Assembly: GCA_047611865.1 (NCBI GenBank)
Contig: JBLFWS010000012.1
Span: 1-36,335 of the forward strand
Source: Chlamydiales bacterium
GTDB taxonomy: Bacteria > Chlamydiota > Chlamydiia > Chlamydiales > JBDQID01
Reading direction: 5' to 3'
Length of the DNA: 36,335 nt
The stretch's first letter is position 1; every line of letters starts with the position of its first letter. Under the pieces are notes generated by a model. That model was given only the letters and a program-made list of their open reading frames with translations, made no database searches and was not told where the DNA came from. This document shows, piece by piece, positions 2,166 through 35,739 of this stretch. The translations under genes and the position numbers were made by a program.

Positions 2166-3638
2166 TTGTATATGTTTATTGTTGATTACTTAAAATCTAG
2201 TATTGAGCGCCCTGATTACAGCCTTTTACAAGGAAGTGAAAGGATCGCTGCTTTGGGGAAGGCAAACTTTTTTTCCCGTTGTATCCGCTATATCTGTCCA
2301 AAAGAAGCAAAAAAACAGGATCTCAAACTTGCTGAGCTCGTATACCAGCGTCTTAAGGATGCCGATGTTGTAGATCTCAAAGAATCCTTTACTGATGCAA
2401 AAATATTTATTAATAGTCATCAAGGGGTCTTAACAAGACTTGATGACTTATTTTATGCCCATAAAGTCCAGACTGCTTTAGGTGTAGAGATATCTAGGCT
2501 TCTAGAAGTTGATTCTGATGGTAAAAAGGGATTGCTGTGCTTTCTCCGAAAGAATCATTTGCAAAGAGTGATTCCAAAAGCAAATGTGCGGGATACGAAA
2601 ACTGCGATTGTATTCGATAAAAAACGGGCTTATATCCGTTGTAATGAAAACGGCCAGGATTTCCTGAATTGTCGTAGTAAAATAAAATTGATTCTTAGTC
2701 GGATAGGCAGTAGTCACCCGGATTACGTCAGCCTTCAGCGTTTAAGCGATTTATTTGAATTGTCAAATAAATCGGAACTTGACTCTGCGTGTCTGGAGGA
2801 GATTGGCCAACTGCGTAAAGAGCTTCACAAGCACAATTACTCTTATATTCCAGTAGATAAATTGCCATTATTTAAAACCGGGTACTTATCAAATAAGAGG
2901 TTCCTTATTCAGGGGATTGAAGAGTGTCGAGTCAAGAATTGGAAGGGCCAGCTAAAAGCTTCTCATTTGGAAAAATCTGATGACGAAACCTATGAATTCC
3001 GTGTTGTCACGAGGCTTCCATCCTATGCTAATGAGAAAGGAATGAGATTTTTAAGTTCTTTTTTTTCTCATGTCATGGCTTTTATGAGAAAAGGTCACGG
3101 TCATTCATGGATAGAAATAGCAAAACCAATCTATAGTGAAGATGGAGATTTTACTGGGCAAAAGGAAATTATAACGGTGGGATATTTTCTTTCAAATGGC
3201 ACGAAGTCTCCTGATCCGGCAATATATGCTCCAGCCCCCAATAAGAAGGTGGAGAAGTATGCCATCACCGAAAAGGCTTACGAAACATCTGTGAAATACG
3301 TCAACTATGTCAATAAGATGGCGAATGAGTCTAATCATAAATGGACGGCTATTCCTGAAGGGAGTGATTTAACGTGTTCTGATGTCAAGAAAATAACACG
3401 TGTGTACAAAAGCATGATCAAAGGAACTTGTATGAATTTTACTACTGAATTGAAAAATCAGGTTTTGGGCCTTGACCATGATCCACGGGGGGTGTTTCGC
3501 AGAAGCCTCTTCCCTCAGAAATTCATTCGATTTTTGGATAAATTCGACAGGATTTTTGAAAAGAATTCCTATCTGAAAAAGGCTGTTTCGCCTTTCTCTT
3601 TTCTTATTCGTGTGCAGCTGCCTTGTAATGTAGCATAA
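2166..3638 (+). CDS. Putative effector with C-terminal permuted papain-like (His...Cys) domain
   Basis: 490-aa ORF (true start possibly ATG 2172); GHSWIE and KGTCMNF motifs are conserved in the adjacent paralog. Confidence 0.75.
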   Translation: MYMFIVDYLKSSIERPDYSLLQGSERIAALGKANFFSRCIRYICPKEAKKQDLKLAELVYQRLKDADVVDLKESFTDAKIFINSHQGVLTRLDDLFYAHKVQTALGVEISRLLEVDSDGKKGLLCFLRKNHLQRVIPKANVRDTKTAIVFDKKRAYIRCNENGQDFLNCRSKIKLILSRIGSSHPDYVSLQRLSDLFELSNKSELDSACLEEIGQLRKELHKHNYSYIPVDKLPLFKTGYLSNKRFLIQGIEECRVKNWKGQLKASHLEKSDDETYEFRVVTRLPSYANEKGMRFLSSFFSHVMAFMRKGHGHSWIEIAKPIYSEDGDFTGQKEIITVGYFLSNGTKSPDPAIYAPAPNKKVEKYAITEKAYETSVKYVNYVNKMANESNHKWTAIPEGSDLTCSDVKKITRVYKSMIKGTCMNFTTELKNQVLGLDHDPRGVFRRSLFPQKFIRFLDKFDRIFEKNSYLKKAVSPFSFLIRVQLPCNVA

Positions 3639-3822: not shown

Positions 3823-4452
3823 TTGCCTGATTATTCAGATCAGCATGGGGCGCAATATGCGGCTTCACTTGCTATGAACATTGTGAAAATGGAAAGTAGC
3901 TTTGGGCATTCCTGGGTGGAGCTTGCAAGGCCTATTTATGACGATAAAGGGCAATTTAAAAAATCAATGGAAGTAAGTAGTGTAGGTTTTTTTATTATAA
4001 AAGGGATGAAGTCACCTGATCCTGGCATATATGACTCTGAGAGTAAAAAGAGTGTTGTAGTGTCCGTCATCAAAAAAACAGACTACAAAAAATCAGTAAA
4101 ATACATTCAGCGCCTAAGCTCGATGATCAATGCTCCTTACAGGGATTGGACAGCTGTTCCAAAAGGAGGCGGTTTAAGTCGTAAAGAAATTAGAGAAATT
4201 AGTAAAATATATAAAAGTTCGGTGAAAGGGACATGTACGAATTTTGCTAATGAATTTAACAATACTATTGCCGGGAAGAATCATGACTCAAGGGATTACT
4301 TGAGAAAGACGATTTTTCCACGAACCGTTATCAGATATCTTGACCGATTTGATTGGTTTTTTGAGAGTCACTTTCTTTTGAAAAAAATTGCGGAGCCTTT
4401 CGCCTTTATTTTAGGAGCTCAGATTCCCGCTAACATGATTTTAGATCAATAG
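3823..4452 (+). CDS. 5'-truncated paralog of the upstream gene (catalytic domain only; possible pseudogene)
   Basis: GHSWVELARPIY..SPDPGIY..KGTCTNF match 2166-3638. Homology continues in frame upstream of the TTG (LQASYAEKSEKPHYEIRVVSRLP vs LKASHLEKSDDETYEFRVVTRLP); the nearest upstream in-frame stop is TAG 3703-3705 with no ATG between. Confidence 0.65.
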   Translation: MPDYSDQHGAQYAASLAMNIVKMESSFGHSWVELARPIYDDKGQFKKSMEVSSVGFFIIKGMKSPDPGIYDSESKKSVVVSVIKKTDYKKSVKYIQRLSSMINAPYRDWTAVPKGGGLSRKEIREISKIYKSSVKGTCTNFANEFNNTIAGKNHDSRDYLRKTIFPRTVIRYLDRFDWFFESHFLLKKIAEPFAFILGAQIPANMILDQ

Positions 4453-8736: not shown

Positions 8737-9159
8737 GTGAGTCAGGATGATCTAGTGATATCAAGTCAAGCTCCTGAGCCTGTGGGTCTTTATCCCCATG
8801 CTCGTCGTGTGGGAAATCTCTTGTTTTTATCAGGAGTGGGACCACGCAAGCGTGGGGAAAAAGAAATCCCGGGTGTGACACTCGACCAAAATGGGCAAAT
8901 TGAGTCTTATGACATAGAAGCTCAGTGTCATTCGGTCTTCACTAACGTGCGCTACATCGTTGAAGATGCCGGAGCAAGCTGGGGAGACATCGTCGATGTG
9001 ACAGTGTACTTAACAAATATGAAGGATGATTTTGCGACCTTCAATCAAATATATGGGGATTACTTCAAAAATACTAGGCCTTGTAGGACGACTTTGGAAA
9101 TCAACTGTTTGCCTACACCAATAGCTATAGAACTGAAAGTTGTGGCATCAATTTCTTGA
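8737..9159 (+). CDS. RidA/YjgF-family protein, probable 2-aminomuconate deaminase
   Basis: APEPVGLYPHARRVGNLLFLSGVGPR..PCRTTLEINCLPTPIAIELK; GTG start at 8737 chosen over the ORF-track start inside the ALDH gene. Confidence 0.85.
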   Translation: MSQDDLVISSQAPEPVGLYPHARRVGNLLFLSGVGPRKRGEKEIPGVTLDQNGQIESYDIEAQCHSVFTNVRYIVEDAGASWGDIVDVTVYLTNMKDDFATFNQIYGDYFKNTRPCRTTLEINCLPTPIAIELKVVASIS

Positions 9160-9169
9160 GGAGGAAATA

Positions 9170-9688
9170 ATGGCAATTACCGCTCCGATTAATTTGAAAG
9201 AATGGGTAGAAGAGAATAGGGATTTACTGAAACCGCCAGTAGGTAACAAATGTGTTTATGAAGACAGCCAATCTTTTATCATGGTTGTAGGAGGACCGAA
9301 TCTTCGCAAAGATTATCACGTCAATGTGATGGAGGAATTCTTCTATCAGATTGAAGGAGATATCGTGCTCAAAACTGTTCAAGAGGGAAAGATTATTCCC
9401 ATCCCCATCAAAGAAGGGGAAATATTTCTTCTTCCACCAAACATCCCTCATTCCCCACAAAGACCCACAAACAGCGTAGGATTGGTACTAGAGCGTAAAA
9501 GGCCCTCCGGCAAGTTAGATGGTTTTAAATGGTTTTGCGAAGAATGCACAACAGTCTTGTACGAGGAAGAACTGCAGGTGACGAATATTGTGAAACAGCT
9601 ACCTCCCGTATTTGATCGTTTCTATGCAAAAAAAGAGAATCAAAAGTGCAAGAAATGCGATTGGGAAATGCAGGTACCAGCACGATGA
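9170..9688 (+). CDS. nbaC: 3-hydroxyanthranilate 3,4-dioxygenase
   Basis: LLKPPVGNK, VGGPNLRKDYH..EEFFYQ, PHSPQR, CEEC/CKKC rubredoxin-like site; GAGGAGG RBS before ATG 9170. Confidence 0.97.
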   Translation: MAITAPINLKEWVEENRDLLKPPVGNKCVYEDSQSFIMVVGGPNLRKDYHVNVMEEFFYQIEGDIVLKTVQEGKIIPIPIKEGEIFLLPPNIPHSPQRPTNSVGLVLERKRPSGKLDGFKWFCEECTTVLYEEELQVTNIVKQLPPVFDRFYAKKENQKCKKCDWEMQVPAR

Positions 9689-10731
9689 AAATCGATATCC
9701 ACACACATATTCTCCCAGAGGAATTACCGCGATGGGCAGACAAATTTGGCTATGGGGGATTCATATACCTGGATCATCATAAACCCAGGTGTGCCAGGAT
9801 GATGGTTGATGACAAATTCTTCCGCGAGATATCCTGCAACTGCTGGGATCCTGCCACTCGTATAGAAGACTGTGATAGAACAAGCGTTGATGTGCAGGTT
9901 TTGTCGACGATACCTGTTCTCTTCAGCTACTGGGCAAAAGCTCACGATGCTCTGGAGATTTCGAGATTTCTTAATGACCACATGGCAAGTGTTGTAGAGG
10001 CTAACCCTTCACGCTTTGTAGGGCTTGGAACGATTCCCATGCAAGCACCGGATCTGGCAGTAAAAGAATTGGAGCGCTGCGTAAATGAATTGGGACTCGC
10101 AGGAGTAGAAATAGGTTCTCACGTTAACGACTGGAATCTGGATGAAGCGGCACTCTTTCCCATCTTTGAAGCAGCAGAGCGTCTGGGAGCTGCGGTATTT
10201 GTTCACCCATGGGATATGGTAGGGAAAGAGGATATGCCCAAATATTGGTTGCCGTGGTTGGTAGGGATGCCTGCGGAGCAGTCAAGGGCTATCTGCTCGC
10301 TAATATTTGGCGGAGTCCTGGAACGTCTCCCCAAACTGAGGATTGCCTTTGCCCATGGTGGAGGGGCCTTCTCCGGGACCATTGGCCGCATTGAGCATGG
10401 CTTTAAGGTACGCCCCGATTTATGTGCCGTGGATAACAACGTCAACCCACGCGAATACCTCAAAAGAATCTATGTAGACTCATTAGTGCATGACCCTGCA
10501 ATGTTGAACTACCTAATAGAGCTCTACGGCGAAAACCGTGTCGCTCTGGGTAGTGACTACCCTTTCCCTCTAGGAGAAGACCACCCCGGGAAAATGATCG
10601 AATCCTTAGATCAACTCTCGAAAGAAACAAAAGAGCGTTTACTATCAGGAACAGCATTAGAGTGGTTGAACCTTAAAGGTAAGCATCTTGAGTCAATCCA
10701 GCGGCAATCCCAAGGTCTAGGAGCTTTATAG
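9685..10731 (+). CDS. nbaD: 2-amino-3-carboxymuconate-6-semialdehyde decarboxylase (ACMSD, amidohydrolase family)
   Basis: IDIHTH, QVLSTIPVLFSYW, FVHPWDM, WLVGMPAE, AHGGG, GSDYPFPLGE; ATGA overlap with nbaC. Confidence 0.95.
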   Translation: MKIDIHTHILPEELPRWADKFGYGGFIYLDHHKPRCARMMVDDKFFREISCNCWDPATRIEDCDRTSVDVQVLSTIPVLFSYWAKAHDALEISRFLNDHMASVVEANPSRFVGLGTIPMQAPDLAVKELERCVNELGLAGVEIGSHVNDWNLDEAALFPIFEAAERLGAAVFVHPWDMVGKEDMPKYWLPWLVGMPAEQSRAICSLIFGGVLERLPKLRIAFAHGGGAFSGTIGRIEHGFKVRPDLCAVDNNVNPREYLKRIYVDSLVHDPAMLNYLIELYGENRVALGSDYPFPLGEDHPGKMIESLDQLSKETKERLLSGTALEWLNLKGKHLESIQRQSQGLGAL

Positions 10732-11060: not shown

Positions 11061-11615
11061 ATGAAAAGACCTAAAAATATGTCGAGTATATGTTTAGCCT
11101 CATTTGGCTTTCAGTCTACCTCCCTTAGGGGGGATCTACCAAATGAAAGATTTGTTGAAATATCCGAAGCTGTAAACACAGCTAATCACGTTTACTCCTA
11201 TGTAGAGCAAAGTGTTAGATTGCAAACTCATATGGTTGAGGACAGTAAAAAACGACTGCTTCTCGAATTACAAGAACAGGTAGACGTATTAGTGCAGCGT
11301 GTTTTTGAAAAATTAGACCTCGAGAGAGTATGTTATTCTCTTGCCCTCTGTTATTTTGACCGGTTTATTGGTAGCATTGCAGAAGATATTAACCCAACGC
11401 ATATCCCTTATTATTACGTTGGGTCTCTATGCCTTGCTCAAAAATATCTGGATGATGATCATTATATAAATAGAGATTTTAGTCTATTGACTGGAGTATC
11501 TATTAAAGATTTCAACCGACTGGAATTAAGTATTCTGAAGACTCTGGAATTTAAACTAGAAGCTTCTATGTCCGACATTTCTCAATACTTTTCTCCGTAT
11601 GAACTGAGGGCTTAA
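11061..11615 (+). CDS. Eukaryote-like cyclin (PHO80/PCL-type cyclin box)
   Basis: ALCYFDRF..SLCLAQKYLDDDHYINRDFSLLTGVSIKDFNRLELSILKTLEFKL fits the PHO80-type pattern LAxKxxDDxxxxNxxF/W..NxLExxxLxxLxFxL. Confidence 0.85.
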   Translation: MKRPKNMSSICLASFGFQSTSLRGDLPNERFVEISEAVNTANHVYSYVEQSVRLQTHMVEDSKKRLLLELQEQVDVLVQRVFEKLDLERVCYSLALCYFDRFIGSIAEDINPTHIPYYYVGSLCLAQKYLDDDHYINRDFSLLTGVSIKDFNRLELSILKTLEFKLEASMSDISQYFSPYELRA

Positions 11616-11938
11616 AAGTCCCTGATCAATTAGCTTTTTTGAGATCAAGAGTAAGCTAATAGCTTCGAACGCCTACGTTTATGTAAATTGATGGTCACGT
11701 AAGTGGCCCATTTCCTTTTTAGCCCTGTCCTTTAGCGCGGGGAATCAAGAATACACTCCATGAAACGGTAAAAGACCGGAGTTATTTAGCCCCCCTCTTT
11801 TTATAGAGAATTGGTTCTTACTTTTTGTTCTCCCTGATCATAGTTTCGGTATAACGCTCATGTAAAACTCAAGTAGAAGACCAAAGTTGTCGATAATATC
11901 CACAAAGCATTTATTTGATGTCAAATAAGGAGACTTGT

Positions 11939-12534
11939 GTGATTAGGCCTATAGGTAATTCAGGGATACCTCAAAGTGGGGGAGCCAGTAGGGCGGATAT
12001 TGCTAAGCAAATTAAAAATAATATGGTAGAGAAATTGAAGCCGCAATCAGGGGAGTATATCAATCAACCTGTGGGGAATCTGCGATTTTCTGATCAAGAC
12101 AAGGAGGATTTGTTATTGGATTCTCGGAGAACGAAAAATACTATTGGAGGGGGATTTATTGCAGCGAACCCAGATACTAGAAAGGAGATCTGGAAATATT
12201 AGGGAAAAGAGGAGGGCAGGCTGTATCAGATATGAAGGAAGGAATGAGAGGATCTTTGGAGAAAGATGTTAGTAGTCGAGTTAAGCTTGATTTTAATGGG
12301 ACAAATTTAGAAAACGCCAAATTGACAAATGAAATTGTGGAAGGGATTGTTGATGATCTCGGATTGGACAAGTTAGTTGATGCCTTACATGCTAGATTTT
12401 TCATTCAGACTCAAGGGAAGACTGAAACTGCAGCATCAAAGTTACTTGGGAATGCAGCAAGTGTGGCAAAATCGTTGGTCAATAGAGCTTTCACTAAAAG
12501 GTCTCCCGCAAAAGTCTATATAGATAATTCATAG
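11939..12534 (+). pseudogene. Hypothetical effector-like gene split by a 1-nt frameshift near 12180-12200
   Basis: GTG 11939 with AAGGAG RBS; frame 1 ends at 12202, frame 2 is open from 12181 to 12534; one extra A in an A-run joins them. Confidence 0.55.
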
Positions 12535-12566: not shown

Positions 12567-14162
12567 TTACACGTTATGATACGCCCCAGTTGGTGTACTC
12601 GGTTCTACTGGAACCGCGCTAGCTTTTTGGCTTGTACATTTCCAAACGGCATATCCAAGACCAGCAGTAGCTACTCCACCAAGAAAAACCCCTGCATAGA
12701 TAGCTATATGTTCACCAGATTGATAGCTATGTTCACCATCAGCAGTTCTTGGCATTTCAGTTATCGGCAAAGGAGTCTCTGTTGTAGGGGTAGGACATGG
12801 AGAATTTGTTACAGGGGGCTTCGTTGTAGGTCCGGGTGTCGGAGCCTGTGTGGGTATAGGTGTTGGACCCTGTGTAGGTGTCGGCGCAGGCGTTGGAGCC
12901 TTTGTAGTAGGTATGGGTGTTGGACTTTGAGTAGGCGTTGGTGTTGGAGCCTTTGTGGTAGGTATGGGTGTAGGTGCAGGCGTTGGAGCCTTTGTTGTAG
13001 GTGTGGGTGTTGGCGCTGGTGGATTAGGATTCCCCGCACACTCAGACGGAAGTGGCAGAGTTGTTGGTCTGCTTCCTGGATTTTGTCCCACTGCATAATC
13101 CCCAAACACAGCACAATCCCTGAGGGGAGTGGATCCGCATCTTTGTGTAACAGTACGTCTTACAACACCTCTCATAGCATCTTCCAATGCGAGTATGGCT
13201 TTACCACGGTCGGCATACTGGTTTGGATCATTACCGATGTTATGGCTAAATCCCAAACTGTGAAGCAACTCGTGAAACATAATCGCGGAATTAAGATCGT
13301 GGGGGAAGCTGGAGGGAACAGGTAAGTTAAAGGTAAATAGGTCGTGCTCGCCACTTCGAGCTATCTGAGAATAGGTGTAGCCTCCAATGCCAGTATTAGG
13401 GTTACGGAATCCACCAACAGCGACAGAGCTTTCGAGGAGTTTATCAATAGCTACATCAAGCTGTGCTCTGGTCATGGCAATGCCTTTGTTGGCATTCCGA
13501 TATCCTATATCGAGGATTGAGTTGCGGCATTCTGTCAAAACCCATGTCATAGCTAAATAGGACTCGCTAAGGTGTTGGGACTGTTGGGTGTTAAATGTGG
13601 CATCTTGAAACTGACCCTCAGATGGGCTGCGTGTACCTAAGCCTGTTTGTACATAGACTTTAAAGTTCGGCTGTATGGCCTTGTATGTGTCGAAATTAAA
13701 AGACACTTGATCGAGAAGGGTAAACTTATCGGCATTGATACCTGTAAGCTGGCCGTTGCTACCGATGTTTAGTTCTCTGGTAGTCCCAGTAAAGAGCTTT
13801 CGTTGGCAAGAAGCTATTCCCGCAGCGGTTGCGGCGCTTAAGAGTGGGATGGCATTTACAGGAACAGGGATCCCAGCAATTTCCATAATATAATAGGTCA
13901 CGAAAGTAGCGCAAGCTGTAGCTGCAGCAATGACAGCAGTGGCTTTTTCACTGATCTGAAAAGAGGGGCTCTGGTCTAGGTTGAGTGTGATTTCACTCGC
14001 AGAGAACTTTGCTGGGGCTTTTTCTTCAATTTCTATAGATTGAGTTGCTACACGGCTACATTTTTCTTCTAAAGGGCATTTGTTAGGGGTTTTGTGATTG
14101 TTTAAAGGATGGGGAATGACTTCTATTTGCTTGTGTGAAGGGATAGTATATGTACTTGCCAC
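12567..14162 (-). CDS. Membrane-anchored metzincin-type zinc metalloprotease with Pro/Thr-rich stalk
   Basis: [11 protein letters not shown] (HExxHxxGxxH); N-terminal two-lobed hydrophobic segment; PT repeats; C-terminal [34 protein letters not shown] before GTG. Confidence 0.8.
12790..13020 (-). repeat. Coding tandem repeats encoding a PTPxPTTKAP linker
   Basis: Recurrent ggagcctttgtNgtaggtRtgggtgt units; most are absent from the paralog. Confidence 0.85.
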
Positions 14163-14427: not shown

Positions 14428-15847
14428 CTACACGTTATGATAAGACCCGGTGGGAGTCAGCACTTCAATTGGAGCCTCGCTAGATTTCTGACTTACACAT
14501 TCCCAAATGGCATATCCAAGACCAGCAGTAGCTAATCCGCCAAGATAAACCCCTGTATAAATAGCTATATGTTCACCAGAGCTATAACGTTGTTCACAAA
14601 CAACGGGTCTTGGCATTTCAGTTATTGGCAAGGGAGCTTTAGTTGTGGGAGTGGGGCTTGGGGCATTTGTCACAGGAGGCTTTGTTGTAGGTGTAGGTGT
14701 TGGGGGATTTGGATTTCCTGCGCACTCAGACGGAAGTGGCAGAGCTGTTGGCCTGTTTTCTGGATTTTTTCCCACAGCATAATTTCCGAACACAGCACAA
14801 TCGCTGAGGGGGGTGGAGCCGCATCTTTGTGTAACAGTACGCTTTACAACACCTCTCATAGCATCTTCCAATGCGAGTATGGCTTTACCACGGTCGGCAT
14901 ACTGGTTTGGATCATTGCCGATGTTATGGCTAAATCCCCAGCTATGAAGGATTTCGTGAAACATTATCGCGGAATTGAGATCGTGTGGAAAGCTTGAGGG
15001 AACAGGTAAGTTAAAGGTAAATAGTTGCTGATCACCACTTTTAGCTATCTGAGAATAGGGTGTAGCCTCCAATGCCCGTATTAGGATTGAGGAAGCCTCC
15101 TACTTCGACAGAGTTTTCGAGGAGTTGATCAATAGCTACATTTAGCTGTGCTTTTGTTAGGGCAATGCCTTTGTTAGCATTCTGATAACCTATATCGAGA
15201 ATGGAATTGCGGCATTCAGTCAAGGCCCATGTCATAGCTAAAAAAGATTCGCTAAGGTGTTGGGACTGCTGAGTGCTATATGTAGCATCTTGAAACTGAC
15301 CCTCTGAGGGGCTATGGGTCCCCAAACCGGTTTGTACATAGATCTTAAAGTTCGGTTGTATGGCTTTGTATGTGTCGAAATTAAAAGATACTTGATCCAG
15401 AGGGGTAAATTTATTCGCGTTGACACCTGTGAGCTGACCATTACTGTCGATGTTTAATTCTCTGGTAGTCCCTGTGAAGAGCTTGCGTTTGCAAGAAGCA
15501 ATTCCCGCGGCGGTTGCGGCACTAAGCAGTGGGATGGTGTTTGCAGGAAGGGGGATTCCAGCGGTTTCCATAATATAATAAGTTGCAAAAGTAGCGCAGG
15601 CAGTAGTAAAAGCAAAGAGAGCAGTGGCTTTTTCGCTAAGCAGAAAAGAGTTGTTCACGTCTTTGTTGAGTGTAGTTGCAGTCGCCCGAAGCTCTGCGGG
15701 AACTTTTTCTTCGATTTCTATAGATTGAGTAGCTACTCGGCTACATTTTTCTTCTAAGGGGAGTTTATCTGGAGTCTTGTGAATGTCAAAATGCTTTGAA
15801 ATAGCTTCAAGTTGCTTGTGAGCTGGGATTGTGTATGTTGTTGCCGC
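14428..15847 (-). pseudogene. Decayed paralog of the metzincin protease gene
   Basis: Extra G (gagaatagggtgtag vs gagaataggtgtag, 15058-15060) splits ORFs 15041-15922 and 14428-15072; the homologous start GTG reads GCG (15845-15847); HEILHSWGFSH retained. Confidence 0.85.
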
Positions 15848-15972
15848 GAAGTCTCCTGCATGTAAAATGGTTTTTTTTGAAAAAAAATAGACATTACAGG
15901 ACGTAGTTATTTTTTTGCACATTCAAATTGTACTGTTCACTTAAAAATTTATTTTAGAAAAATTGAGAGAAA

Positions 15973-16020: not shown

Positions 16021-16845
16021 TTAGAGGTGGAAGAAATTTTTGATGCCTGAAGCGACAGTTTCTACGACGTTTTTCACTTCTTTGATAGGGAATCCAGCAT
16101 CTTTTAATGTAGAATGAAGATTCTTTTTACTAAGCTTGAAATGTCTTTGAATAGTATCTGTAAGGTCTTTAAGGTTCATATTAAAAGTTTTTTTCAGAGC
16201 TTTTGCTACGGCTTTTGAATCTTTTGTAAGGGTCTTGAAAATGCTGGCAGCTTGCTTGCCATTTTGCTTATATACCTTCTTAAGAACAGTGCCTATGCTG
16301 TCTACTGAAGATCCAATATCTTTTAAGGATTTAGCAGCCTGAGTTGCAGATTGTTTAAATGTCTTTTGTAAGACCATGGCGATGTGGCCTTCAGATTTTC
16401 CAATTCCTTTTAAAATAACGGCCGTGTCCTTTGCTGATTTTTTGAAAACACTCTTCATTACATTGCCAATTTCAGGGACGGTGGTATTGATTTTATTGAG
16501 AATAGAAGCCACTTGTTTAGCATTCTGTTTGTATACGGTTTTCAATGACTGGGTAATAGTTTCGACAGGGGTACCAAGATCATTTAAAGTCTTTGCTGTT
16601 AGAGATGCAGAGATCTTGTAAGTTTTTTTTAGTACGGCAGCTATCTGACTTTCAGTTTTTCCAATACCCTTTAAAATATTGGCGACATCAAAGTGTGAAA
16701 GTTTCAACGTACTTTTAAGGACATCACCAATTTGATGATCCCCTATCTTAATGTCGTTTAGGTGCTTTGCCACCTGCTTGGATGAATTTAGAATTTGGGT
16801 ACTTAGCTTTTTACTTTTCACGGATTTCTTAGTAACTGTTACCAT
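16021..16845 (-). CDS. Lys-rich 29-aa tandem helical repeat protein
   Basis: At least seven 29-aa units such as LKGIGKTESQIAAVLKKTYKISASLTAKT; AGGAG RBS. Confidence 0.85.
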   Translation of the reverse strand: MVTVTKKSVKSKKLSTQILNSSKQVAKHLNDIKIGDHQIGDVLKSTLKLSHFDVANILKGIGKTESQIAAVLKKTYKISASLTAKTLNDLGTPVETITQSLKTVYKQNAKQVASILNKINTTVPEIGNVMKSVFKKSAKDTAVILKGIGKSEGHIAMVLQKTFKQSATQAAKSLKDIGSSVDSIGTVLKKVYKQNGKQAASIFKTLTKDSKAVAKALKKTFNMNLKDLTDTIQRHFKLSKKNLHSTLKDAGFPIKEVKNVVETVASGIKNFFHL

Positions 16846-17308: not shown

Positions 17309-18685
17309 TTAAGCTCTAACCATAGCTTGACGTCTTTCTGCATTGAGTGCTCTGTCGATTTCCCTTTTGACGGAACTCAAGTCGAGACCTCCTAAATCAT
17401 TGACGTCATGACATATTTGTTCCAAAACAGAATCCTGAATACGCCCTTTTCTCATGGCTTCGGCATAGGGGATGTCTGTGAAAGTTACCATGGAATATTT
17501 TGAGATGAAATCCCCAGGGTATTTGTCTTCCAGCTTGTGTTCGAGTTCTTTCTTTAGCAAAAACTTGGGGTCGGCCACCAGGTCTCTCATTTCGATGAAG
17601 TTGTCGATGGCAAGGTCAGCTATGGCGTCGGTATTTTCTTTGCGGAGCTTTTGGTACTCCTGGAAAATCCTCTCCCAATCGTGATCGTACTTTTCGATAC
17701 AGTCGTTTAGGACGGTGCAGTCTTCGAAGGAGCAGTTCATCCCTTGTCCATAGAAAGGAACCATGGCGTGGGCGGCATCCCCTAAGAGAAGAACTTGGTC
17801 TTTGAAGTTCCAGGGGGAGCACTTTACTGTTACGAGAGAGCCTGTGGGGTTCTGGGAAAAATCTTCATTTAGCGAAGGCATCAAAGCATAGGCATCGGGG
17901 AATTTATCCTGGAAGAAGCTTGTCACGTCTTCGGGAGTTTTTAAGTTTTCGAAACTCAAATCTCCTTGAAGGGGCAAAAAAAGCGTGCAGGTGAAAGAGC
18001 CATCCAGATTTGGAAGAGCAATCAGCATATAGGAAGCCATTGGCCATATATGTAGCGCATGCTTTTCCATCTGGTGTTTACCCTCTTTTCCAGGGGGGAT
18101 GGTTAGCTCTTTGTAGGAGTGTTCGAGGTAGTTCTGGGAAAAGTTAAAGCGAGGTCTCCCTATCCATGATGTACGCACCGCAGAAGTGGACCCTTCCGTA
18201 TCGAAAACTCGGCTGGCATCGAGGGTAAATTCAACGTCAGTTTTCTTATCGAGAAAAGTTAATTCTTCTGATGAAAGCTTCATTCCGAGACACTGCTTTT
18301 CGAAATGCAAGCGTATTTCCGGAAAATTTTCTGTAGCATTGAGGATAGCTGCATTTAAGTCTTCTCGAGAAATGCTGTAGATGACTTCTTCTTCGTTTTT
18401 TCCATAGGGAGCAAAGCTTAGTCTTCCTCCATTACCATGGATCATACGTCCTTTCATAGAAATGGCTTGTCCGAGTATCTTTTGGTCTAACCCAAGCTTT
18501 TCAAGAGCAGTGACACCTCTTTTGGAAAGGGCCATATTAATGGAGCGGCCAGAATAGCTGGATTCCGTACGTAAATCTGGGCGGCGTTCATACAGATCCA
18601 CATGATATCCATGTTTGGCGAGGAAAATAGAGAGTAGTGAACCTGCCAGACCAGCTCCTACTATAATAGATGTTTTCGTTTTCAT
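17309..18685 (-). CDS. kmo: Kynurenine 3-monooxygenase
   Basis: GAGLAG, GRSINMALSKRG, ALHIWP, LLGDAAHAMVPFYGQGMN, NFIEMRD, YSMVTF. Confidence 0.96.
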   Translation of the reverse strand: MKTKTSIIVGAGLAGSLLSIFLAKHGYHVDLYERRPDLRTESSYSGRSINMALSKRGVTALEKLGLDQKILGQAISMKGRMIHGNGGRLSFAPYGKNEEEVIYSISREDLNAAILNATENFPEIRLHFEKQCLGMKLSSEELTFLDKKTDVEFTLDASRVFDTEGSTSAVRTSWIGRPRFNFSQNYLEHSYKELTIPPGKEGKHQMEKHALHIWPMASYMLIALPNLDGSFTCTLFLPLQGDLSFENLKTPEDVTSFFQDKFPDAYALMPSLNEDFSQNPTGSLVTVKCSPWNFKDQVLLLGDAAHAMVPFYGQGMNCSFEDCTVLNDCIEKYDHDWERIFQEYQKLRKENTDAIADLAIDNFIEMRDLVADPKFLLKKELEHKLEDKYPGDFISKYSMVTFTDIPYAEAMRKGRIQDSVLEQICHDVNDLGGLDLSSVKREIDRALNAERRQAMVRA

Positions 18686-19938
18686 GAGGTGACTTCTTTG
18701 AGTTTATGGAAAAAATGAAATAGGTCGACAAAGCTATTGTAGAGTGGAACGGGAGCTATTCTTAAAACATCAGGTTCTCGCCAATCTCCAATTATGCCAC
18801 TATCTTTGAGTTTTTTGTAATATTCAAGACCGTTTTTTTCAAAACGTATGGACAGTTGGCATCCGTGTTGGCTCTCTTCCTCTGGTGTGATTACAGATAA
18901 TAGAGAAGAGGGGAGAGTCTTAAGCAATGTCCTCATATATTTATGAAGCTTTTCGCTTTTTTCATTAAGTCGTGACATGCCACTTTCTTCGAAAAGATCC
19001 AGTGAGGGCAGGAGGGCTGCAAGAGAAAGTATAGGGGGGTTGCTGAGTTGCCATCCTTCGGCTCCATTGATTGGATCAAAGTTAGGTTCCATGAGAAAGC
19101 GTCGTCCTTTGTTGTGTCCCCACCATCCAGCAAAACGTTCTAACTCATGGTCATGGTGCCTTTCGTGAACAAAGCAAGCTCCTGGACAACCGGGTCCTCC
19201 GTTGAGGTATTTGTAAGTACACCATACAGCGAAATCGATGTTATCATCATGTAGCTTGAGCGGGATATTGCCTGCTGCATGGGCAAGGTCAAAGCCTACG
19301 GTACATCCGTGTGAGTGTCCGAGTTCGGCTATTTTTTTCATAGGGAGAGCTTGTCCGGAATAATAGTTCACTCCTTCCATCCAAATGAGAGCTATCTCAG
19401 ATCCATTTTTCTCTAGAGTGTCCTCCAGATCTTTAATTTCTACGAGACCATTATGAGAAGGAAGTGTTATCAGGGCATCTTCAGGGTCAAAACCATAATA
19501 CCGTAGCTGAGACTGCAAAGCATATTGGTCGGAGGGGAACATATGGGGATTGACGAGTATCTTATAACATTCCGGGGAGGGTCGGTAAAAGGAGACCATC
19601 ATCAGGTGAAGGTTTGCGGTCAGACTATTCATTACAACGACTTCTGATGATTTAGCCCCCACGATTTTAGCCATTTTATCGGTGAGGAGCTCGTGATAGG
19701 GTAGCCATGGCCTATTCTCTTTGAAGTGCCCCTCGACTCCTAATGCCTGCCAGTCCTGAAGTTCTTGAAAGACAGAGTCAGCAGCACCTTTAGCCTGGAG
19801 TCCCAATGAATTTCCCGCAAAGTAAAGGCTGTCCGTAGGAATAAAAAATTGTTGGCGAAAGGAGGCAAGAGGATCGTCTTTATCCAGCTGTTCGGCATAT
19901 TCGATAGAAGAAGGGCCGGTAACTTGATGTCTTTGCAT
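18682..19938 (-). CDS. kynU: Kynureninase (eukaryote-like type)
   Basis: YFAGNSLGLQ, MNSLTANLH, FDLAHAAGN, WCTYKYLNGGPG, GWWGH, WQLSNPP; ATGA overlap with kmo. Confidence 0.97.
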   Translation of the reverse strand: MQRHQVTGPSSIEYAEQLDKDDPLASFRQQFFIPTDSLYFAGNSLGLQAKGAADSVFQELQDWQALGVEGHFKENRPWLPYHELLTDKMAKIVGAKSSEVVVMNSLTANLHLMMVSFYRPSPECYKILVNPHMFPSDQYALQSQLRYYGFDPEDALITLPSHNGLVEIKDLEDTLEKNGSEIALIWMEGVNYYSGQALPMKKIAELGHSHGCTVGFDLAHAAGNIPLKLHDDNIDFAVWCTYKYLNGGPGCPGACFVHERHHDHELERFAGWWGHNKGRRFLMEPNFDPINGAEGWQLSNPPILSLAALLPSLDLFEESGMSRLNEKSEKLHKYMRTLLKTLPSSLLSVITPEEESQHGCQLSIRFEKNGLEYYKKLKDSGIIGDWREPDVLRIAPVPLYNSFVDLFHFFHKLKEVTS

Positions 19939-19941
19939 AGT

Positions 19942-20769
19942 CTATGCCTTTTTACTAGGGATAAGGGGAAATAATAATGGACGGCTGGGAGCTGCATCAC
20001 TCATAAAACAAGGAATTTGTATGTTCAAGAGATATTGTCCATCAGGGACATTATCGGGAACAAAAATCATTTCAGTGATGGTTTTGTCTTGTCGGACTTT
20101 TTGGTCTAAGGTTTTACTCCCTGGTGCTACGCCCCAAAAAAGTCGATGGATAGCAAGATGCCCGCCGTCAGAGGCTCTGTCCACAGAAGGAAGGTCAACG
20201 AGTAGGTGGCGCACTCCTTTTTTTACGAGGTAAGCCATGGCTTCAAGGGAGAAAAAAGCAGGAGGGTTTTTAAGATAACATCGATGTCTTTTGTCCGTGG
20301 GATTGGGAAGGGTTCGTATGACTAAGCCTTCACAGAATTCTTCTTCGCAATGGTCCAATGCCTTAGTAAGAGAGGCTTTAGTGATGAGCTGGTCTTTGGG
20401 GTCTTTTTCTGGGAGGTAGCTATCGTCGGATTCCCCGCCACGAAGGGGGGTAACAGAGATGACAGTACATGCAATGAAGGATTCGGAAAAACAGCTGTTA
20501 ACAGCTAGTCTCTCATCGGTAATGTGCCCGACACATTCCGTATGGGTGCCATTACTATGGGGTGTCAGGATGAGTTGTTCCCAGTTCACACTCCCTTTAA
20601 GGCGTGTGTCGCCGATCATTCCTGGAACTTCCCTAGGGGTGGAGATTGCCGGAGAAACACCATGAGGGTTGGGCTGGCTTTCATTGAAATGGAGGGGGAT
20701 AGCGATAGGAATAGGCTTCTGTCTATCTACTTCATAATTTTGAGAGTTTATGGTGACAGTAATTTTCAA
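19942..20769 (-). CDS. kynB: Cyclase-family metal hydrolase, probable kynurenine formamidase
   Basis: PHSNGTHTEC, LLVDLPSVD, H..FW, ITEM, DAAPSRP; first gene of the operon with kynU and kmo. Confidence 0.75.
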   Translation of the reverse strand: MKITVTINSQNYEVDRQKPIPIAIPLHFNESQPNPHGVSPAISTPREVPGMIGDTRLKGSVNWEQLILTPHSNGTHTECVGHITDERLAVNSCFSESFIACTVISVTPLRGGESDDSYLPEKDPKDQLITKASLTKALDHCEEEFCEGLVIRTLPNPTDKRHRCYLKNPPAFFSLEAMAYLVKKGVRHLLVDLPSVDRASDGGHLAIHRLFWGVAPGSKTLDQKVRQDKTITEMIFVPDNVPDGQYLLNIQIPCFMSDAAPSRPLLFPLIPSKKA

Positions 20770-21436: not shown

Positions 21437-22288
21437 TTATCTAGGGATATCCTCTTGTGAAAGAGAAATTTTTTCACGGTTTAGCCAGTAGTCTTTCCCA
21501 TAGTCTACGGTTAGGTGAGTGCCCTTGCATATGCTTGCTCCCGCAATGAAAACGAGGTGTAATATCCCTCTGTCTACAAGACAAACAGGGGTTAAGTTGG
21601 GTGTGTCGCTATGATTGATGAAACGTAAGATGTTTGCTCCTTTGAGAGCGTCCACCATCAAAACGTTTCCGCTCCAGTAGTTGGTGGGGTATAGCATGCA
21701 GTAGGGGTTATGATTGGGTGCTTTAGAGTCCAGGGGTCTGATGTTGCCAGTATACTCTCCGATGTAATCACCAAGGTTTAACTCGTCGTTGGTGTACACC
21801 CCATAGCCAATTTCATCGTGGACCCATTTGATGGTCATGTCAGGAGTGTAGCCTGAGGAGAGTTCTTTCTGGTAGCGCCTACTCAGAGAGCGGTTCTGCC
21901 TTCCAAAATAGCTCCATTTTATTGCCCATGGACATTGCCTGATGATTTCTTTGAGATAGGCGTAATCCTTGAAGTATTGAAAGGGAAGATAGCGGGTTTT
22001 GAAGAGTTCTTCAAACTCGCTTTCGCTATATTCAGATAAAAGAGCTTCTCCTTTGAGGGCCACCTTGATTTTTCTTGGGTTCTCGGGTTGCAATATTTGC
22101 ACGCATTTTCTTTTGTCGAGCAGTCGGGCGATCTCTAAAGCCGTGAAGCCCAGAGAGTTCCTGCTTAGCATGAGTTCTTCATCTTCACGCAAAGTCATTA
22201 GTTGTTTGTAGTCGTTAAAAAGAACTGCAATATGAAGGGGGGTCTCTTCAGCTTTTCTACGAAAAAACACAGGTTTACCTTTTTTCAA
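21437..22288 (-). CDS. Ankyrin + SET-domain protein lysine methyltransferase
   Basis: TPLHIAV and GFTALEIA ankyrin-like motifs; SET motifs GYGVYT, IGEYTG, RFINHS, LTVDYG; start codon uncertain. Confidence 0.9.
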   Translation of the reverse strand: MKKGKPVFFRRKAEETPLHIAVLFNDYKQLMTLREDEELMLSRNSLGFTALEIARLLDKRKCVQILQPENPRKIKVALKGEALLSEYSESEFEELFKTRYLPFQYFKDYAYLKEIIRQCPWAIKWSYFGRQNRSLSRRYQKELSSGYTPDMTIKWVHDEIGYGVYTNDELNLGDYIGEYTGNIRPLDSKAPNHNPYCMLYPTNYWSGNVLMVDALKGANILRFINHSDTPNLTPVCLVDRGILHLVFIAGASICKGTHLTVDYGKDYWLNREKISLSQEDIPR

Positions 22289-27153: not shown

Positions 27154-28119
27154 TCAAGTAAAGTTTTCTTTGGTCCATGTGATCAGCTCTTCCCATTCTT
27201 TGGGATGTTTTTTGGGGAAGCCTTTGGCGTATTCCAGGAGATAATGTACTTTTTCTGTTGCATCTAAGTCAATACGTTCTTCCATGAGTGGATCGAAGCG
27301 GAGGAAGTTATCTCCTAAAAAACGTTTGCAATTCTGTTCTACCAAACAAACCGTTGTGTCCATCACGAGAGAGAAAAGAGGGATGGAAGGGGTGGTGGTA
27401 AAACCCAAACTGAATGGGTTGAGCCATGAAAGAGGTCCAGCATTTGTGTGACCATTTTCGTCGGTGGCAAAGGTTCGGGGGACATAGCCTGACCCTAAGG
27501 AAAGTAAGCGGATATTGGAGAGTTCTTTTTTTGTATCTCCAGAGGGATCACAAGCTAGTGATAAGGCAGCCATGCTGGGATTTTGCGATGCGACAGCGCC
27601 ATCGATATATCCTTGGTAGGAGGGGAAATAAGTAGGCGCTGCTGAGCTGCGCATGACAGCATCGAAGAGGGAGGGAGGTTTTTCTGTGCTGTTAATGTTG
27701 GAAAAAATACAGGGAACCCAATGTCCTTTGCCGTTGGATAGCTTACAGGATGTGACCATGATATGTTTTGGTAAGCTGTCGAGGGGGTCGCTATGGAGGA
27801 TGTCACCATGGGAGAGCTGATTTTCCAAGCGTTTCTTTCCGGCCTCATTGGAGTATTTACAGTGAAAGTAAAATAGGGACATCTTACTGTAGCGAGGGAA
27901 ATAGTCGTCGGGGTTTTCATAGAATTCCAGAACCTTTTTTGGAGGCTGTCCCGATGCAAGGCACATAGCGACCATAGCGCCTCCCGAAGTTCCAGCAAAG
28001 AGGTCAACCTTTGAAAGAAAATCGACTTCTTCAGCCAGTATGGCAAGAATTTGTGCACTAAGTATCGTGCGTACTCCGCCGCCGTCAAAGCTCAGAATAC
28101 GATAAGGAGAGTCTGTCAT
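27154..28119 (-). CDS. Patatin-like phospholipase
   Basis: DGGGVR, GTSGG nucleophile, SSAAPTYFP, DGA, LSLGSG. Confidence 0.93.
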   Translation of the reverse strand: MTDSPYRILSFDGGGVRTILSAQILAILAEEVDFLSKVDLFAGTSGGAMVAMCLASGQPPKKVLEFYENPDDYFPRYSKMSLFYFHCKYSNEAGKKRLENQLSHGDILHSDPLDSLPKHIMVTSCKLSNGKGHWVPCIFSNINSTEKPPSLFDAVMRSSAAPTYFPSYQGYIDGAVASQNPSMAALSLACDPSGDTKKELSNIRLLSLGSGYVPRTFATDENGHTNAGPLSWLNPFSLGFTTTPSIPLFSLVMDTTVCLVEQNCKRFLGDNFLRFDPLMEERIDLDATEKVHYLLEYAKGFPKKHPKEWEELITWTKENFT

Positions 28120-28376: not shown

Positions 28377-31300
28377 ATGGATAATATTAATCCCGACCCA
28401 GATCCAAGTTTACAATTTCTGATTAGTTTAGCAGAAAATCAAGAATACCCTGTTTTACAGGACGTTTTTAGAGCCGATCAAGCTCAACTAATAAATTTTG
28501 CAGAGTGGGTCTCGCAGAGTGAGCCATCAAATGTAGAACTTTCCTCCCTTGTCGTAGTCTGTATTTCTAATGATGAAAACTTGCGAAATGAACAACGAGA
28601 ACTATTTGACAGGTTAGAGAATGTGATCTTTAACAAGATTTTCATGTCTGCAGTTGAAGATGATGACGTCACAAAGTTAGGGGAAACAATTTCAGACTGG
28701 CTAAGAGATGGCCATATTTCTGTTGTGGATGAGATGATAGAAAATATGGATCCACAGACTCTTGGAGAGCTGATGACGATCACTGATGCAAATGGCAAAA
28801 CTCTATTGCTTTCTTCGATCGAATATTTTGATAGTGCTCATCTAATTAACAAGATTTTGGAGAAGTGTCCAGATGAACAAAGTCGTATTAACTGGGTTAG
28901 CCATGTCGGGAATAATAACGAAACGTCCATCTTAACTGCAGTAAAGATAGGCAATAACTTAACCCTGAAAGAGCTTTTAAAGGTACTACCAGATGCAGAA
29001 CGTATGGAACTTCTGAATAAGGCGGATAACCGTAGAGACGCACCCTTGAGCTTTGCTATCAAAGAGGGTAAAGCGGAGTTGCTTAAAACCCTGTTTGAGG
29101 CCTGTCCTTCTCCCGATAGCAGATGGGAGTTTCTTCAGCAAAATGCACAAGCAAATCGAGGTATTCTTTATGCTCCTATCTGGAATCAAAAATTAGATGT
29201 GCTAGAAGAGATATTAGATGGCTGCCCTCAAGAGAGGATTCATGATCTTTTGTTTCTACCAGTAGATCAGGACATTTCCACTTTATCCTGTGCAGCAGGA
29301 AAGGGGAATGTGGAACTTATTAGAATGATACTTGACTATTGTCCTGAAAATGACTTGGAGGAGTTTCTTTTACTAAGTGATCAGAACGGTGATAATGTAT
29401 TGCATCATGCTGTAAGGAGTGGAGATCTTGAGGTCTTTAGCGAAATACTGAATATTTGTCCTACAAGTATTCTCAATGAACTACTTTCGAAAACTGGGAG
29501 AGGGAACTCCACAGTCCTGGATCTTTGTGCAAAAGATGGCAAGGCGGCTATGGCGCAGGAATTCTTCCGCGCGGCATCCAGACCCTTTGAGGTAATTGAG
29601 AATGACCCTTTTGAGATATCTATTAGAATAGAAAATAACGAAGAAGTCGGTGAACCTGAGGTCCCCGTAGAGGCTCGGAGGGAAGAGGTTTTTACAGAAG
29701 ATGAGATGACGAATTTTTTATTGGGAACAGACGATAGTGGAAATACGGCTTTGATGTCTGCAATACGCGGAGGTCATGGAACAATAGCACAGGAAATTAT
29801 GGCCCATTGTCCGGACGAATACAAGGCTGAGCTATTTCTGAAAACTAATAATGAAGGTGCTACAACATTGATGTCTTCACTGGGACATAATACCACCCTT
29901 GACCAAATTGAAGGGCTGTGGAATGTCTGTCCAGAAGAAAGCCGTATCGAATACCTCATGAGTCAAGATAGCAGAGGGCGCACCTGTATCATGTATGCGG
30001 CTGAAAGATGTGGCCAAGACATACTGCAAAACCTGATCAGTAAATGTCCTGAAGATAGGGTGGGGGAGCTTTTACTAAAATCTGATGACGATGACAAGAC
30101 GGCTCTTATGTATGCAGCCACAAGGGGAGATACCGGAATATTTCAGGCAGTCATTGGTGCATTTCCTGAGCCTATCCGTACAAGTCTCTGTGAAGAAGAA
30201 GACTCACCAGCATTTCCTTGTTTAGAATTAGCTATTGATAGAAGACGAACGGGTATTGTCTCTTCTATCTTGGCTTCCTGTCATATTAGTGAAGAGATTC
30301 TGGCAAAGGTGATTTCCTCATCTCCAAGTATTCTCGGAGATGAACAGCTACAAAGTGATATCCTGGCTCGTATTAGCAACGAGCAGATAAAAAAAGTTCT
30401 CGTTTTAGAGTACAAGATGCGTTCCAACTACCAGCAAGAAGTCGACAATGAACTCGAAGAACTCTTGGGAGAGGAGACCGACGTCGAATTTTTTGAAAAG
30501 GCCATCATGTATGCGCCGCACTTGACAGAGAATCTACTCTCCAATCACATGACTGAAATTAAAGAGGTAATTGATGCCATAGAAGGCATTGATGAGCTTC
30601 CTCTGGATACACGGATGACTCTTTTGCCGTTTTTTCCTCCTTCTGAGATCCTGTCTACGGTCAATGAATTATCAGCCATGGAAAGGCAAGAGTATATGGC
30701 GATTCGGGTAGACGCCGATGGCGTGGATTGTACATTGACTCAAGGATTACAAAGTGTGGTGAGCGAGTGGGTAGACCATATTGAAGATGAGAGGTACTCC
30801 GGAGCTTTTATTGAGAACACCCGGAGTTTTCTAAAAAAGCTCTCTTACAAAAATCTTGCTGTAGCAGCGATAGATTCCAATTACGTTCAGGGAATGGTGA
30901 TTAAGTTGATTTCCCTGATGCAGGATGCTCAGTCCATAGTGGTAATACCCCTTATTCCTGTAGTACGCTTCTTAAATATGATGCAAGGAGATGCTCTTTC
31001 CTTGACAATGCTATACTTGGCAAAAGCAAGTGATACTCAGAAGATTGCTTTCTTACAGTCCGAGGTAGCTCTGGTTACTGGACTAGATGACTGGGTGAAC
31101 ATTAGAATACCGAATATAAAGAATCAGATAGCTGTTCTCGAAGGGAAAATAGAAGAAGAGGAAGATGGGATTCTTGAGGACTATAAAGCCATAAATCGAG
31201 ATTGGCAAAGTGTTCTTTCGTATAGAACAACAGTCTTACAAAGTAAAATGCTCATTAAGCGCCTGGAGCATTTTTTAAAACAGAACAATCCATCAGAGGA

Positions 31301-34794: not shown

Positions 34795-35739
34795 ATGGAG
34801 AGCCTTACACAATTCAAAATCACAAAAAAATGCCCTCAAAATCAGACATTCCCTAATTTTAATACACGAGCTGGGACGTGTTTTCAAATAGCCAACGTTG
34901 CTTTTGGAGATACCCTCGCAGACCCGACACAAAACACAGAAAAGTTACACATGACCTCCATACAAGAAATTAGTTCCCCTGAAGCCAAGGAACATACCTT
35001 CGCTGATCTTATCGACCGTTACGTTGAAAACATCCTGCCGCCTCGTAAACGAAGTAGTCAGGAGCGTTATACACACCTTGAGTGGTGGAAAGAGCGTCTG
35101 GGATCTTATCTATTATCAGAAGTTACCCCAGCGGTAATTGCTCAAACACGAGATTGTCTTGCCAAAGCGACAACATGTCGAGGAACCCAAAGGTCTCCGG
35201 CGCAAGTTGTTCGTCACCTGGCGTCCCTTTCTCACGCTTTTACGATCGCAGTTAAGGAATGGGAGTGGGTGGAAGATAACCCCCTCCGAAAAGTCACAAA
35301 ACCTAAAGAGAATCGCAAGTATGTGCATTCTTTAAGCGAGGAAAGCCAAGACCGTCTGCTACAAGCATGTAAAAATAGCTCAAATCCCCACCTCTACACA
35401 GTAGTCATGCTGGCTTTATCAACGGGGATGTGCCAGAGGGAAATACTTAAGCTTACATGGGCTGATCTGGATACGAACAATGAGAGAATCACCTTACATG
35501 AGACAAAGGATGATGAGATTCGTGTGTTTCCCTTAAAAGGGCTAGTATTATCTTTACTCAAGGATTACGAACGTAGTCCGAGGTTTGATGCTTTCCTGCT
35601 TTTTCCGTCTAGCAAGGTAGATAAGTATGGAGAAGTCAGGTCCTCTTGGGACAAGGCTGTGGCTGAGGCTGGAGTTGAAAATTTTAAATTTCAAGATCTT
35701 AGCCTTGTCTATTTCCCACTGGGTTTGCATGATTGTTGA
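34795..35739 (+). pseudogene. Truncated, catalytically dead tyrosine recombinase/integrase
   Basis: LIDRY..LSHAFTIAVKEWEWVEDNP..LALSTGMC (catalytic Arg to Cys)..ETK..FKFQDLS (HxLR lost); the C-terminal Tyr region is absent; likely start ATG 34951. Confidence 0.85.

Follow-up and report, generated by a model that had tools for sequence, protein, structure and literature searches.

Metzincins are defined, in the portion of Trame et al. 2014 used here, by the motif HExxHxxGxxH together with a Met-turn, and aspzincins by an aspartate as third zinc ligand and the lack of a Met-turn. Chlamydial inclusion membrane proteins (Incs) have been predicted in silico as proteins with two helices of 15 to 32 residues joined by a loop of fewer than 30 residues, according to an extract of Dehoux 2011. 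The Coxiella proteins Cig57 and CvpA mimic YxxPhi endocytic sorting motifs and engage the host clathrin-adaptor machinery, as reported in the part of PMC5176192 consulted. We analyzed a stretch of 36,335 nucleotides from a Chlamydiales bacterium (NCBI GenBank assembly GCA_047611865.1, contig JBLFWS010000012.1, positions 1 to 36,335), referred to here as the window, and in it the gene at 12567-14162 on the reverse strand, which has a GTG start and encodes a protein of 531 amino acids plus stop (P0001). An identical protein is already on record in protein collections. A preliminary description of the window had presented this product as a mimic of a eukaryotic membrane-type protease. This is a real gene, and we favor, with a probability of roughly 50%, the reading that its product is an exported, membrane-anchored, host-directed zinc protease.

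The catalytic domain comprises residues 120 to 378 (13029-13805, reverse strand, as for all parts of the gene given below) and belongs to an unannotated family. It contains the HExxHxxGxxH motif at residues 297 to 307 (13242-13274), with His297, His301 and His307 as putative zinc ligands and Glu298 as putative base, followed by Tyr316 and Arg319 (residues 316 to 319, 13206-13217), which are candidate catalytic or stabilizing residues. All 17 sequences of the alignment share these six residues without exception, and Gly304 was invariant in the five sequences of the chlamydial clade. An AlphaFold2 model of the domain, built from the 17-sequence alignment, reached a predicted local distance difference test score (pLDDT) of 87.3 and a predicted template modeling score (pTM) of 0.89. 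In this model, HExxH lies on a helix (residues 169 to 183 in domain numbering) that ends just past the second histidine, and the glycine and the third histidine lie in the next loop. The features of clan MA, namely a HExxH helix with a downstream third ligand in a zincin fold, are thus all seen in the sequence and its predicted structure, and a putative zinc site, as the preliminary description presupposed, is found there as well. A Foldseek search against the Protein Data Bank (PDB) gave weak matches only (best E value, 0.13; none at E ≤0.001), most of which were zinc peptidases. Because the motif residues are invariant, the zincin fold is predicted with confidence, and the best structural neighbors are all zinc peptidases, it is very probable that the protein is catalytically active as a zinc peptidase and represents a new zincin family. 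Judging from conservation and fold, zinc would be held by the three histidines and water activated by Glu298, while Tyr316 and Arg319 would help to stabilize the active site.

The preliminary description had labeled the domain a metzincin while remarking that no obvious Met-turn stood near the motif. The motif supports the label and the missing turn does not: the sole conserved methionine after the motif, Met330 (in EDAM or EDCM), lies inside helix 203-223 of the confident model and is replaced by leucine in P0028. An aspzincin-type ligand was not found either: none of the aspartates in the 25 residues past the motif was invariant, P0014 and P0026 lacking Asp312 and several relatives having asparagine in place of Asp318. 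Glu327 and Asp328 were considered as a gluzincin-type third ligand and rejected, with glutamine in P0012 and tyrosine in P0014 at these positions. Pfam yielded no M10, M12 or reprolysin profile match and, with E values up to 1, no family for the intact gene or for either piece of a split tandem paralog; NCBIfam contained no model and returned chance rows only. A search of PDB sequences with the single protein gave low-complexity matches only, and a PDB-sequence profile search aligned the motif to those of adamalysin and astacin without significance (E values, 0.09 to 1.8). Among the named clusters of the ESM Atlas, the leads (M26, M85 and Aspzincin_M35) were all below 0.9. On its sequence and predicted structure, the domain combines a zinc motif of the metzincin type with a scaffold that resembles aspzincins and has no Met-turn; we place it in clan MA and in neither subclan.

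Relatives of the domain are few. An exhaustive phmmer search of 1.84 billion representatives with residues 120 to 385 (E ≤0.001) returned 19 matches, consisting of 5 clade members, 1 dropped repeat and 13 distant proteins. Three of the clade members (P0003, P0013 and P0014) are the window's or the genome's own, P0014 being a 99% variant of the copy on contig C255, and two (P0002 and P0012) are foreign. The 13 distant proteins have in common IFHELLHNxGFxH..Y..R..AILALEDCM. P0015 (1659 amino acids, 27 matched stretches) was a false positive, a translated tandem repeat, and was excluded from all alignments; P0004 to P0011, from a whole-protein search, were Pro/Thr low-complexity matches and were disregarded. 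A saturated homologue search with profile A2 added nothing. The distant relatives that carry names come from Microcoleus and Caldilineaceae and are annotated as hypothetical or "SH3 domain-containing" proteins; a scan of genome contigs found just two distant loci, in Caldilineaceae and Spirochaetaceae metagenome-assembled genomes, and two scans of JGI metagenome contigs found no relative. The domain was detected in none of 60 relatives of the same order in a single-protein search and, by profile, in none of 400 other genomes of the phylum, 334 of which are of high quality.

The full architecture described below was found only in the present genome and in P0002 and P0012, two metagenome proteins that are taxonomically unplaced. 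P0002 (513 amino acids) is 48% identical overall and 71% (BLASTP) or 72% (phmmer) identical over the domain, and possesses a stalk and a tail ending in YEVL, while P0012 (443 amino acids) is 74% identical to the copy on contig C75. No homologue of known function was found with Pfam, NCBIfam or phmmer, and among the relatives there were no close full-length homologues with a housekeeping role in free-living bacteria, which would have spoken against the preliminary description. The literature searched on Incs, chlamydial HExxH metalloproteases and effectors of environmental chlamydiae yielded no description of the family or of the architecture. The proposed mimicry of a eukaryotic membrane-type protease, on the other hand, was not supported, since the relatives of the domain are all bacterial, most of them with a signal-like start, and no M10, M12 or reprolysin match was obtained. 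The eukaryotic membrane-type matrix metalloproteinases (MT-MMPs) and ADAM proteases are defined by an M10 or M12 catalytic domain preceded by a signal peptide and a pro-domain; the present domain has no Pfam match to M10 or M12, and no Sec-like start precedes it.

We determined the remaining layout of the protein from mean Kyte-Doolittle (KD) hydrophobicity in 19-residue windows, from composition and from a full-length model of low confidence. Residues 1 to 73 (13944-14162) are hydrophilic, contain no hydrophobic window and are mostly without regular structure in the model (pLDDT below 50); they are a candidate type III secretion signal region. As no window above 1.2 was centered before residue 79, a Sec-like N-terminal segment is lacking. 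A two-lobed, moderately hydrophobic block follows at residues 74 to 119 (13806-13943), which from KD values and the model is a putative helical hairpin. Its lobes, at about residues 74 to 93 and 95 to 118, reach KD maxima of 1.58 (residue 84) and 1.49 (residue 107), and the model places helices at residues 66 to 95 and 104 to 122, with an 8-residue Pro-rich loop (residues 96 to 103) between them, dimensions that lie within the Inc limits cited above. Behind the catalytic domain, a Pro/Thr-rich stalk of about 105 residues (379 to 484, 12711-13028) was recognized by its composition, which peaks at 30 Pro or Thr in 40 residues, and by tandem repeats in its DNA (periods of 51 and 24 to 27, at 12872-12997). 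The same Pro/Thr test was passed by only 2 of 3,700 open reading frames (ORFs) of at least 100 amino acids genome-wide, the other being a poly-Pro tract. A C-terminal hydrophobic helix at about residues 485 to 507 (12642-12710; KD, 1.56), a putative membrane span, leads to a tail of 24 amino acids (residues 508 to 531, 12570-12641). The stretch from the motif to the stalk contains three cysteines, Cys342, Cys350 and Cys375. The parts enumerated in the preliminary description (absence of a Sec start, two-lobed block, HExxHxxGxxH, three cysteines, Pro/Thr stalk and C-terminal helix) were thus all recovered.

The properties of the hydrophobic segments bear on how the protein might be inserted. 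In each of the five sequences with the block (counted by eye), one to four lysines or arginines stand in both flanks and none in the loop, a pattern that fits a two-span hairpin whose ends both stay where insertion began. The three segments are of no more than moderate hydrophobicity (KD, 1.49 to 1.58), placing the protein at the 24th percentile of the genome's ORFs with any segment of at least 1.4, whose median is 1.82. Moderate hydrophobicity is reported for secreted membrane effectors in the part of Krampen 2018 consulted.

The gene content of the genome bears on export. The assembly (3.59 Mb, 272 contigs, 95.5% complete) contains seven TLC nucleotide-transporter genes, a type present in 0 of 14 control genomes, as well as two FHIPEP export-gate genes and two secretins; the second FHIPEP gene is cut by contig ends (C250:3-1730 and C8:38960-39367), and the two parts together cover the profile. 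A search for 16S rRNA in this incomplete 272-contig assembly found none, and a search for DotI/IcmL found nothing but was uninformative, as its control failed likewise. The region is present in runs labeled as ice metagenome. In support of the preliminary description, the genome is chlamydia-like and the gene lies among eukaryote-like genes. A Legionella-type origin, which these neighbors suggested at first, was rejected because the seven TLC genes indicate a chlamydia.

Since the genome holds the TLC, FHIPEP and secretin genes, and since the protein combines an Inc-like block and moderate hydrophobicity with a narrow family, four copies in the genome and eukaryote-like neighbors, we favor an exported, host-directed protease. 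By comparison with free-living bacteria, in which proteins with this domain mostly start with a signal peptide or a lipoprotein-like segment, the signal-type start has been replaced in the chlamydia-like symbiont by a hydrophilic N terminus and a moderately hydrophobic, Inc-like hairpin, and a C-terminal membrane helix and short tail have been added, in the present copy with a Pro/Thr spacer as well. The protein would most likely leave the bacterium, probably by type III secretion, and lodge in the membrane of the vacuole or in some other membrane of host origin, where it would act as a host-directed protease. The double-anchored, host-trafficking effector of the preliminary description is upheld in that the protein is a probable zinc peptidase without a Sec start, with an Inc-like block and without a homologue of known function, and is unsupported in its eukaryotic mimicry.

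Several observations weigh against an exported, host-directed protease. The full-length model, with a pLDDT of 52 overall, is unreliable outside the catalytic domain and uninformative on the packing of the three helices. The Inc criteria are loose, with 4 to 10% of chlamydial proteomes predicted as Incs in the extract of Dehoux 2011, and the eukaryote-like neighbors are weak evidence for a host-directed role. Furthermore, the signal-bearing relatives, the Cys-x7-Cys pair and the Pro/Thr stalk favor a catalytic domain outside the reducing cytosol rather than one exposed to the host cytosol in the manner of an Inc. A signal peptide or lipoprotein-like start was read by eye in 6 of 10 foreign sequences, 3 others looking truncated and 1 being unclear, and the pair at residues 342 to 350 (13113-13139; C223 and C231 in domain numbering), which may form a disulfide, is invariant in five of five clade sequences, whose members carry further cysteines. 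Pro/Thr linkers also occur widely in enzymes that bacteria secrete, and the stalk is accordingly not specific as the marker of protist surface proteins for which it had been taken.

These same features, namely the starts of the relatives, the invariant pair with the further clade cysteines, and a linker of a kind usual in bacterial exported enzymes, would suit a bacterial envelope protease in which one lobe of the block is an uncleaved signal anchor, the domain is periplasmic and the C-terminal helix crosses back, so that the tail ends up in the bacterial cytoplasm and its tyrosine would have no sorting role. We consider this alternative possible but doubtful. The charged flanks and the Lys/Arg-free loop, seen in all five sequences, fit a two-span hairpin, which would leave the domain cytoplasmic, and the hydrophobicity of the segments is marginal for Sec/SRP insertion. 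The distribution, with no profile match in the 400 other genomes of the phylum, is also far too narrow for envelope housekeeping, the copies turn over and one of them is split, and a stalk would be pointless where an N-terminal anchor pins the domain to the same membrane.

We then considered the tail. Its final four residues, YHNV (residues 528 to 531, 12570-12581), lie 21 residues past the helix and fit a YxxPhi signal in a short, membrane-proximal tail. A terminal Y-x-x-[LIMFV] was found in 18 of 2,465 ORFs of at least 150 amino acids in the genome (0.73%). The motif is terminal in the present protein (YHNV), in the neighboring copy, which ends in YHNV as the preliminary description had stated, and in P0002 (YEVL), though the remaining tail differs; a second subfamily has YVLI or YVFI followed by an acidic run, and a third, that of the C255 copy, has no tyrosine motif. 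This suggests that the tail motif is conserved, on few and related sequences.

Such a tail is at the center of the model put forward in the preliminary description, in which the protein would sit in host membranes like a type I protein, with domain and stalk lumenal or extracellular and a cytosolic YxxPhi bound by adaptors for endosomal routing. The retention of the terminal tyrosine motif while the rest of the tail diverges, the YVLI or YVFI with an acidic run in the second subfamily, the rarity of such ends in the genome, a cysteine pair and stalk suited to a lumenal domain and the precedent of Cig57 and CvpA in the consulted part of PMC5176192 all speak for it. Topology is the main difficulty. 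Were all three segments to cross the membrane, it would separate the hairpin loop and tail from the N terminus, catalytic domain and stalk, and in the orientation of Incs the tail would point toward the vacuole lumen, beyond the adaptor complexes. Because of this topology, Inc-like anchoring and an adaptor-binding tail are mutually exclusive, unless insertion takes place from the lumenal side. Moreover, no known route puts a folded domain of about 370 amino acids across a host membrane after secretion, the tails amount to only about four semi-independent cases, with the C255 subfamily lacking the motif, and searches with Pfam, phmmer and structure revealed no homology to membrane proteases of eukaryotes. 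We therefore regard adaptor-mediated sorting as unlikely. Of the earlier claims, the YxxPhi stands as a motif that is present and conserved in orthologues, while adaptor use conflicts with the Inc orientation; likewise, the Inc-like hairpin is supported by the two-lobed block and the missing Sec start and is hard to combine with an adaptor-binding tail.

The two could be reconciled, improbable as this is, if the protein were released into the vacuole and inserted from the lumenal side. The disulfide-stapled domain would then be lumenal on its stalk and the tail cytosolic, where the YxxPhi would recruit adaptors, placed, by analogy, like the signals of lysosomal membrane proteins. If so, the protein would amount to a bacterial version of the type I membrane proteins of eukaryotes, riding host vesicle traffic. 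A variant, offered as an idea, has the two anchors in different membranes, with the stalk bridging them as a tether.

The genome holds four copies of the family, one of which is split. This is the tandem paralog, which occupies two ORFs (15041-15922 and 14428-15072, together 14428-15922 on the reverse strand) as the reading frame shifts near 15060, where a one-base length difference from the intact copy lies in a short run. The sequence across the split site was identical in contigs of three public runs, which are possibly the source of the assembly; run X4 had low depth and covered parts of the region only. The ratio of nonsynonymous to synonymous substitution rates (dN/dS) between the split and intact copies came to 0.12 in the catalytic domain and to 0.16 and 0.24 in the first and second pieces, which implies purifying selection on both for most of their divergence. 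The C75 paralog (443 amino acids), on another contig, combines the hydrophobic block with the C-terminal helix and has no stalk, and the C255 paralog (325 amino acids), also on another contig, consists of domain and C-terminal helix only, without the N-terminal region. The stalk is much shorter in the neighboring copy and absent from the C75 and C255 copies, while the catalytic residues are intact in every copy. Beside the C75 paralog, at L004:603-1292 on the forward strand, lies an ORF of 229 amino acids that reads as coiled-coil-like.

The split copy, the loss of the N-terminal region from the C255 copy and the lack of an RNA run among those listed for the region would agree with a decaying or noncatalytic family of pseudo-enzymes or gene remnants that have no current role. 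Given that the catalytic residues are intact in all copies, that dN/dS of the tandem copies is low (0.12 over the domain and 0.16 to 0.24 overall) and that an orthologue at 74% identity retains the full architecture, we consider decay highly improbable.

The tandem copies lie in an islet of about 6.5 kb (approximately 10.8 to 17.3 kb) together with a cyclin-box gene, two small ORFs and a gene for a repeat protein of 274 amino acids. The islet interrupts a kynurenine/NAD de novo cluster, whose flanks are at 9140-10731 on the forward strand and 17309-20769 on the reverse strand; one flank encodes 3-hydroxyanthranilate dioxygenase and an Amidohydro_2 protein, and the other a flavin adenine dinucleotide (FAD) monooxygenase, kynureninase and a cyclase. 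The ORF at 11061-11615 (forward strand, 184 amino acids) matched the eukaryotic cyclin box in Pfam Cyclin_N (E value, 1.9e-11) and Cyclin (E value, 9.1e-08), both above cut-offs, and from its sequence is a candidate host cell-cycle effector. The two small ORFs at 11915-12202 (95 amino acids) and 12232-12534 (100 amino acids), both on the forward strand, have no Pfam match; they run toward the protease gene in different reading frames and might represent either a single disrupted gene or small partner proteins. The repeat protein (16021-16845, reverse strand) is Lys-rich, with repeats of about 33 residues of the form ..VLKKTYK..A...A..LK.IG......I.., and has no Pfam family at cut-off.

Elsewhere in the window, a SET domain gene (21437-22288) and a patatin-like phospholipase gene (27154-28119) lie on the reverse strand, and a gene for an ankyrin-repeat protein of 1,100 amino acids with a C-terminal U-box (28377-31679) lies on the forward strand. 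A dual-specificity phosphatase gene (35819-36316, reverse strand) is found beside a phage-type integrase gene (34795-35739, forward strand). Four further ORFs of 209 to 525 amino acids, at 403-1980 on the reverse strand and at 2166-3638, 3823-4452 and 32408-33937 on the forward strand, have no Pfam family at E ≤1e-5.

The protein defines a zincin family that has neither a Pfam nor an NCBIfam model, and the combination of a metzincin motif with an aspzincin-like fold minus the Met-turn bears on the relations among zincin subclans. It also shows how, in an uncultured chlamydia, an enzyme that other bacteria secrete became a membrane protein with two anchors, within an islet of eukaryote-like genes. 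If the tail tyrosine is functional, the protein would clearly exemplify the use of the eukaryotic sorting code by a bacterial membrane protein. Beyond the enzyme fold, all of these readings rest on inference.

Among described zincins, the M35 aspzincins AsaP1 (2x3a), Grifola peptidyl-Lys metalloendopeptidase (1g12) and deuterolysin (1eb6) have a similar fold, at an identity of just 10 to 15%. They carry the signature GTxDxxYG. In the present domain the third ligand is most likely His307 rather than aspartate, and Pfam Aspzincin_M35 gave no match. With the metzincins of subclan MA(M) (astacins, adamalysins, matrix metalloproteinases and serralysins), the domain has in common HExxHxxGxxH with an invariant third histidine, and differs from them in the missing Met-turn. 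The type III-secreted zincin NleC (4lgj) resembles the domain in no more than the general zincin fold, being soluble and having a different motif context. Cig57 and CvpA are unrelated in sequence and are soluble type IV effectors, whereas the present protein is a membrane protease with a putative sorting motif. As to Incs, these have two or four spans in the extract of Dehoux 2011, as against three here, and in the literature searched no Inc was described as having a protease domain, a stalk rich in Pro/Thr or an additional span at the C terminus. Incs are specific to chlamydiae, and the present protein likewise comes from a chlamydia-like genome and belongs to a clade without homologues outside, save for the two unplaced metagenome proteins. 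Finally, the protein described here shares with Incs a hydrophilic N terminus ahead of a roughly 45-residue block, in which two hydrophobic lobes flank a short loop.

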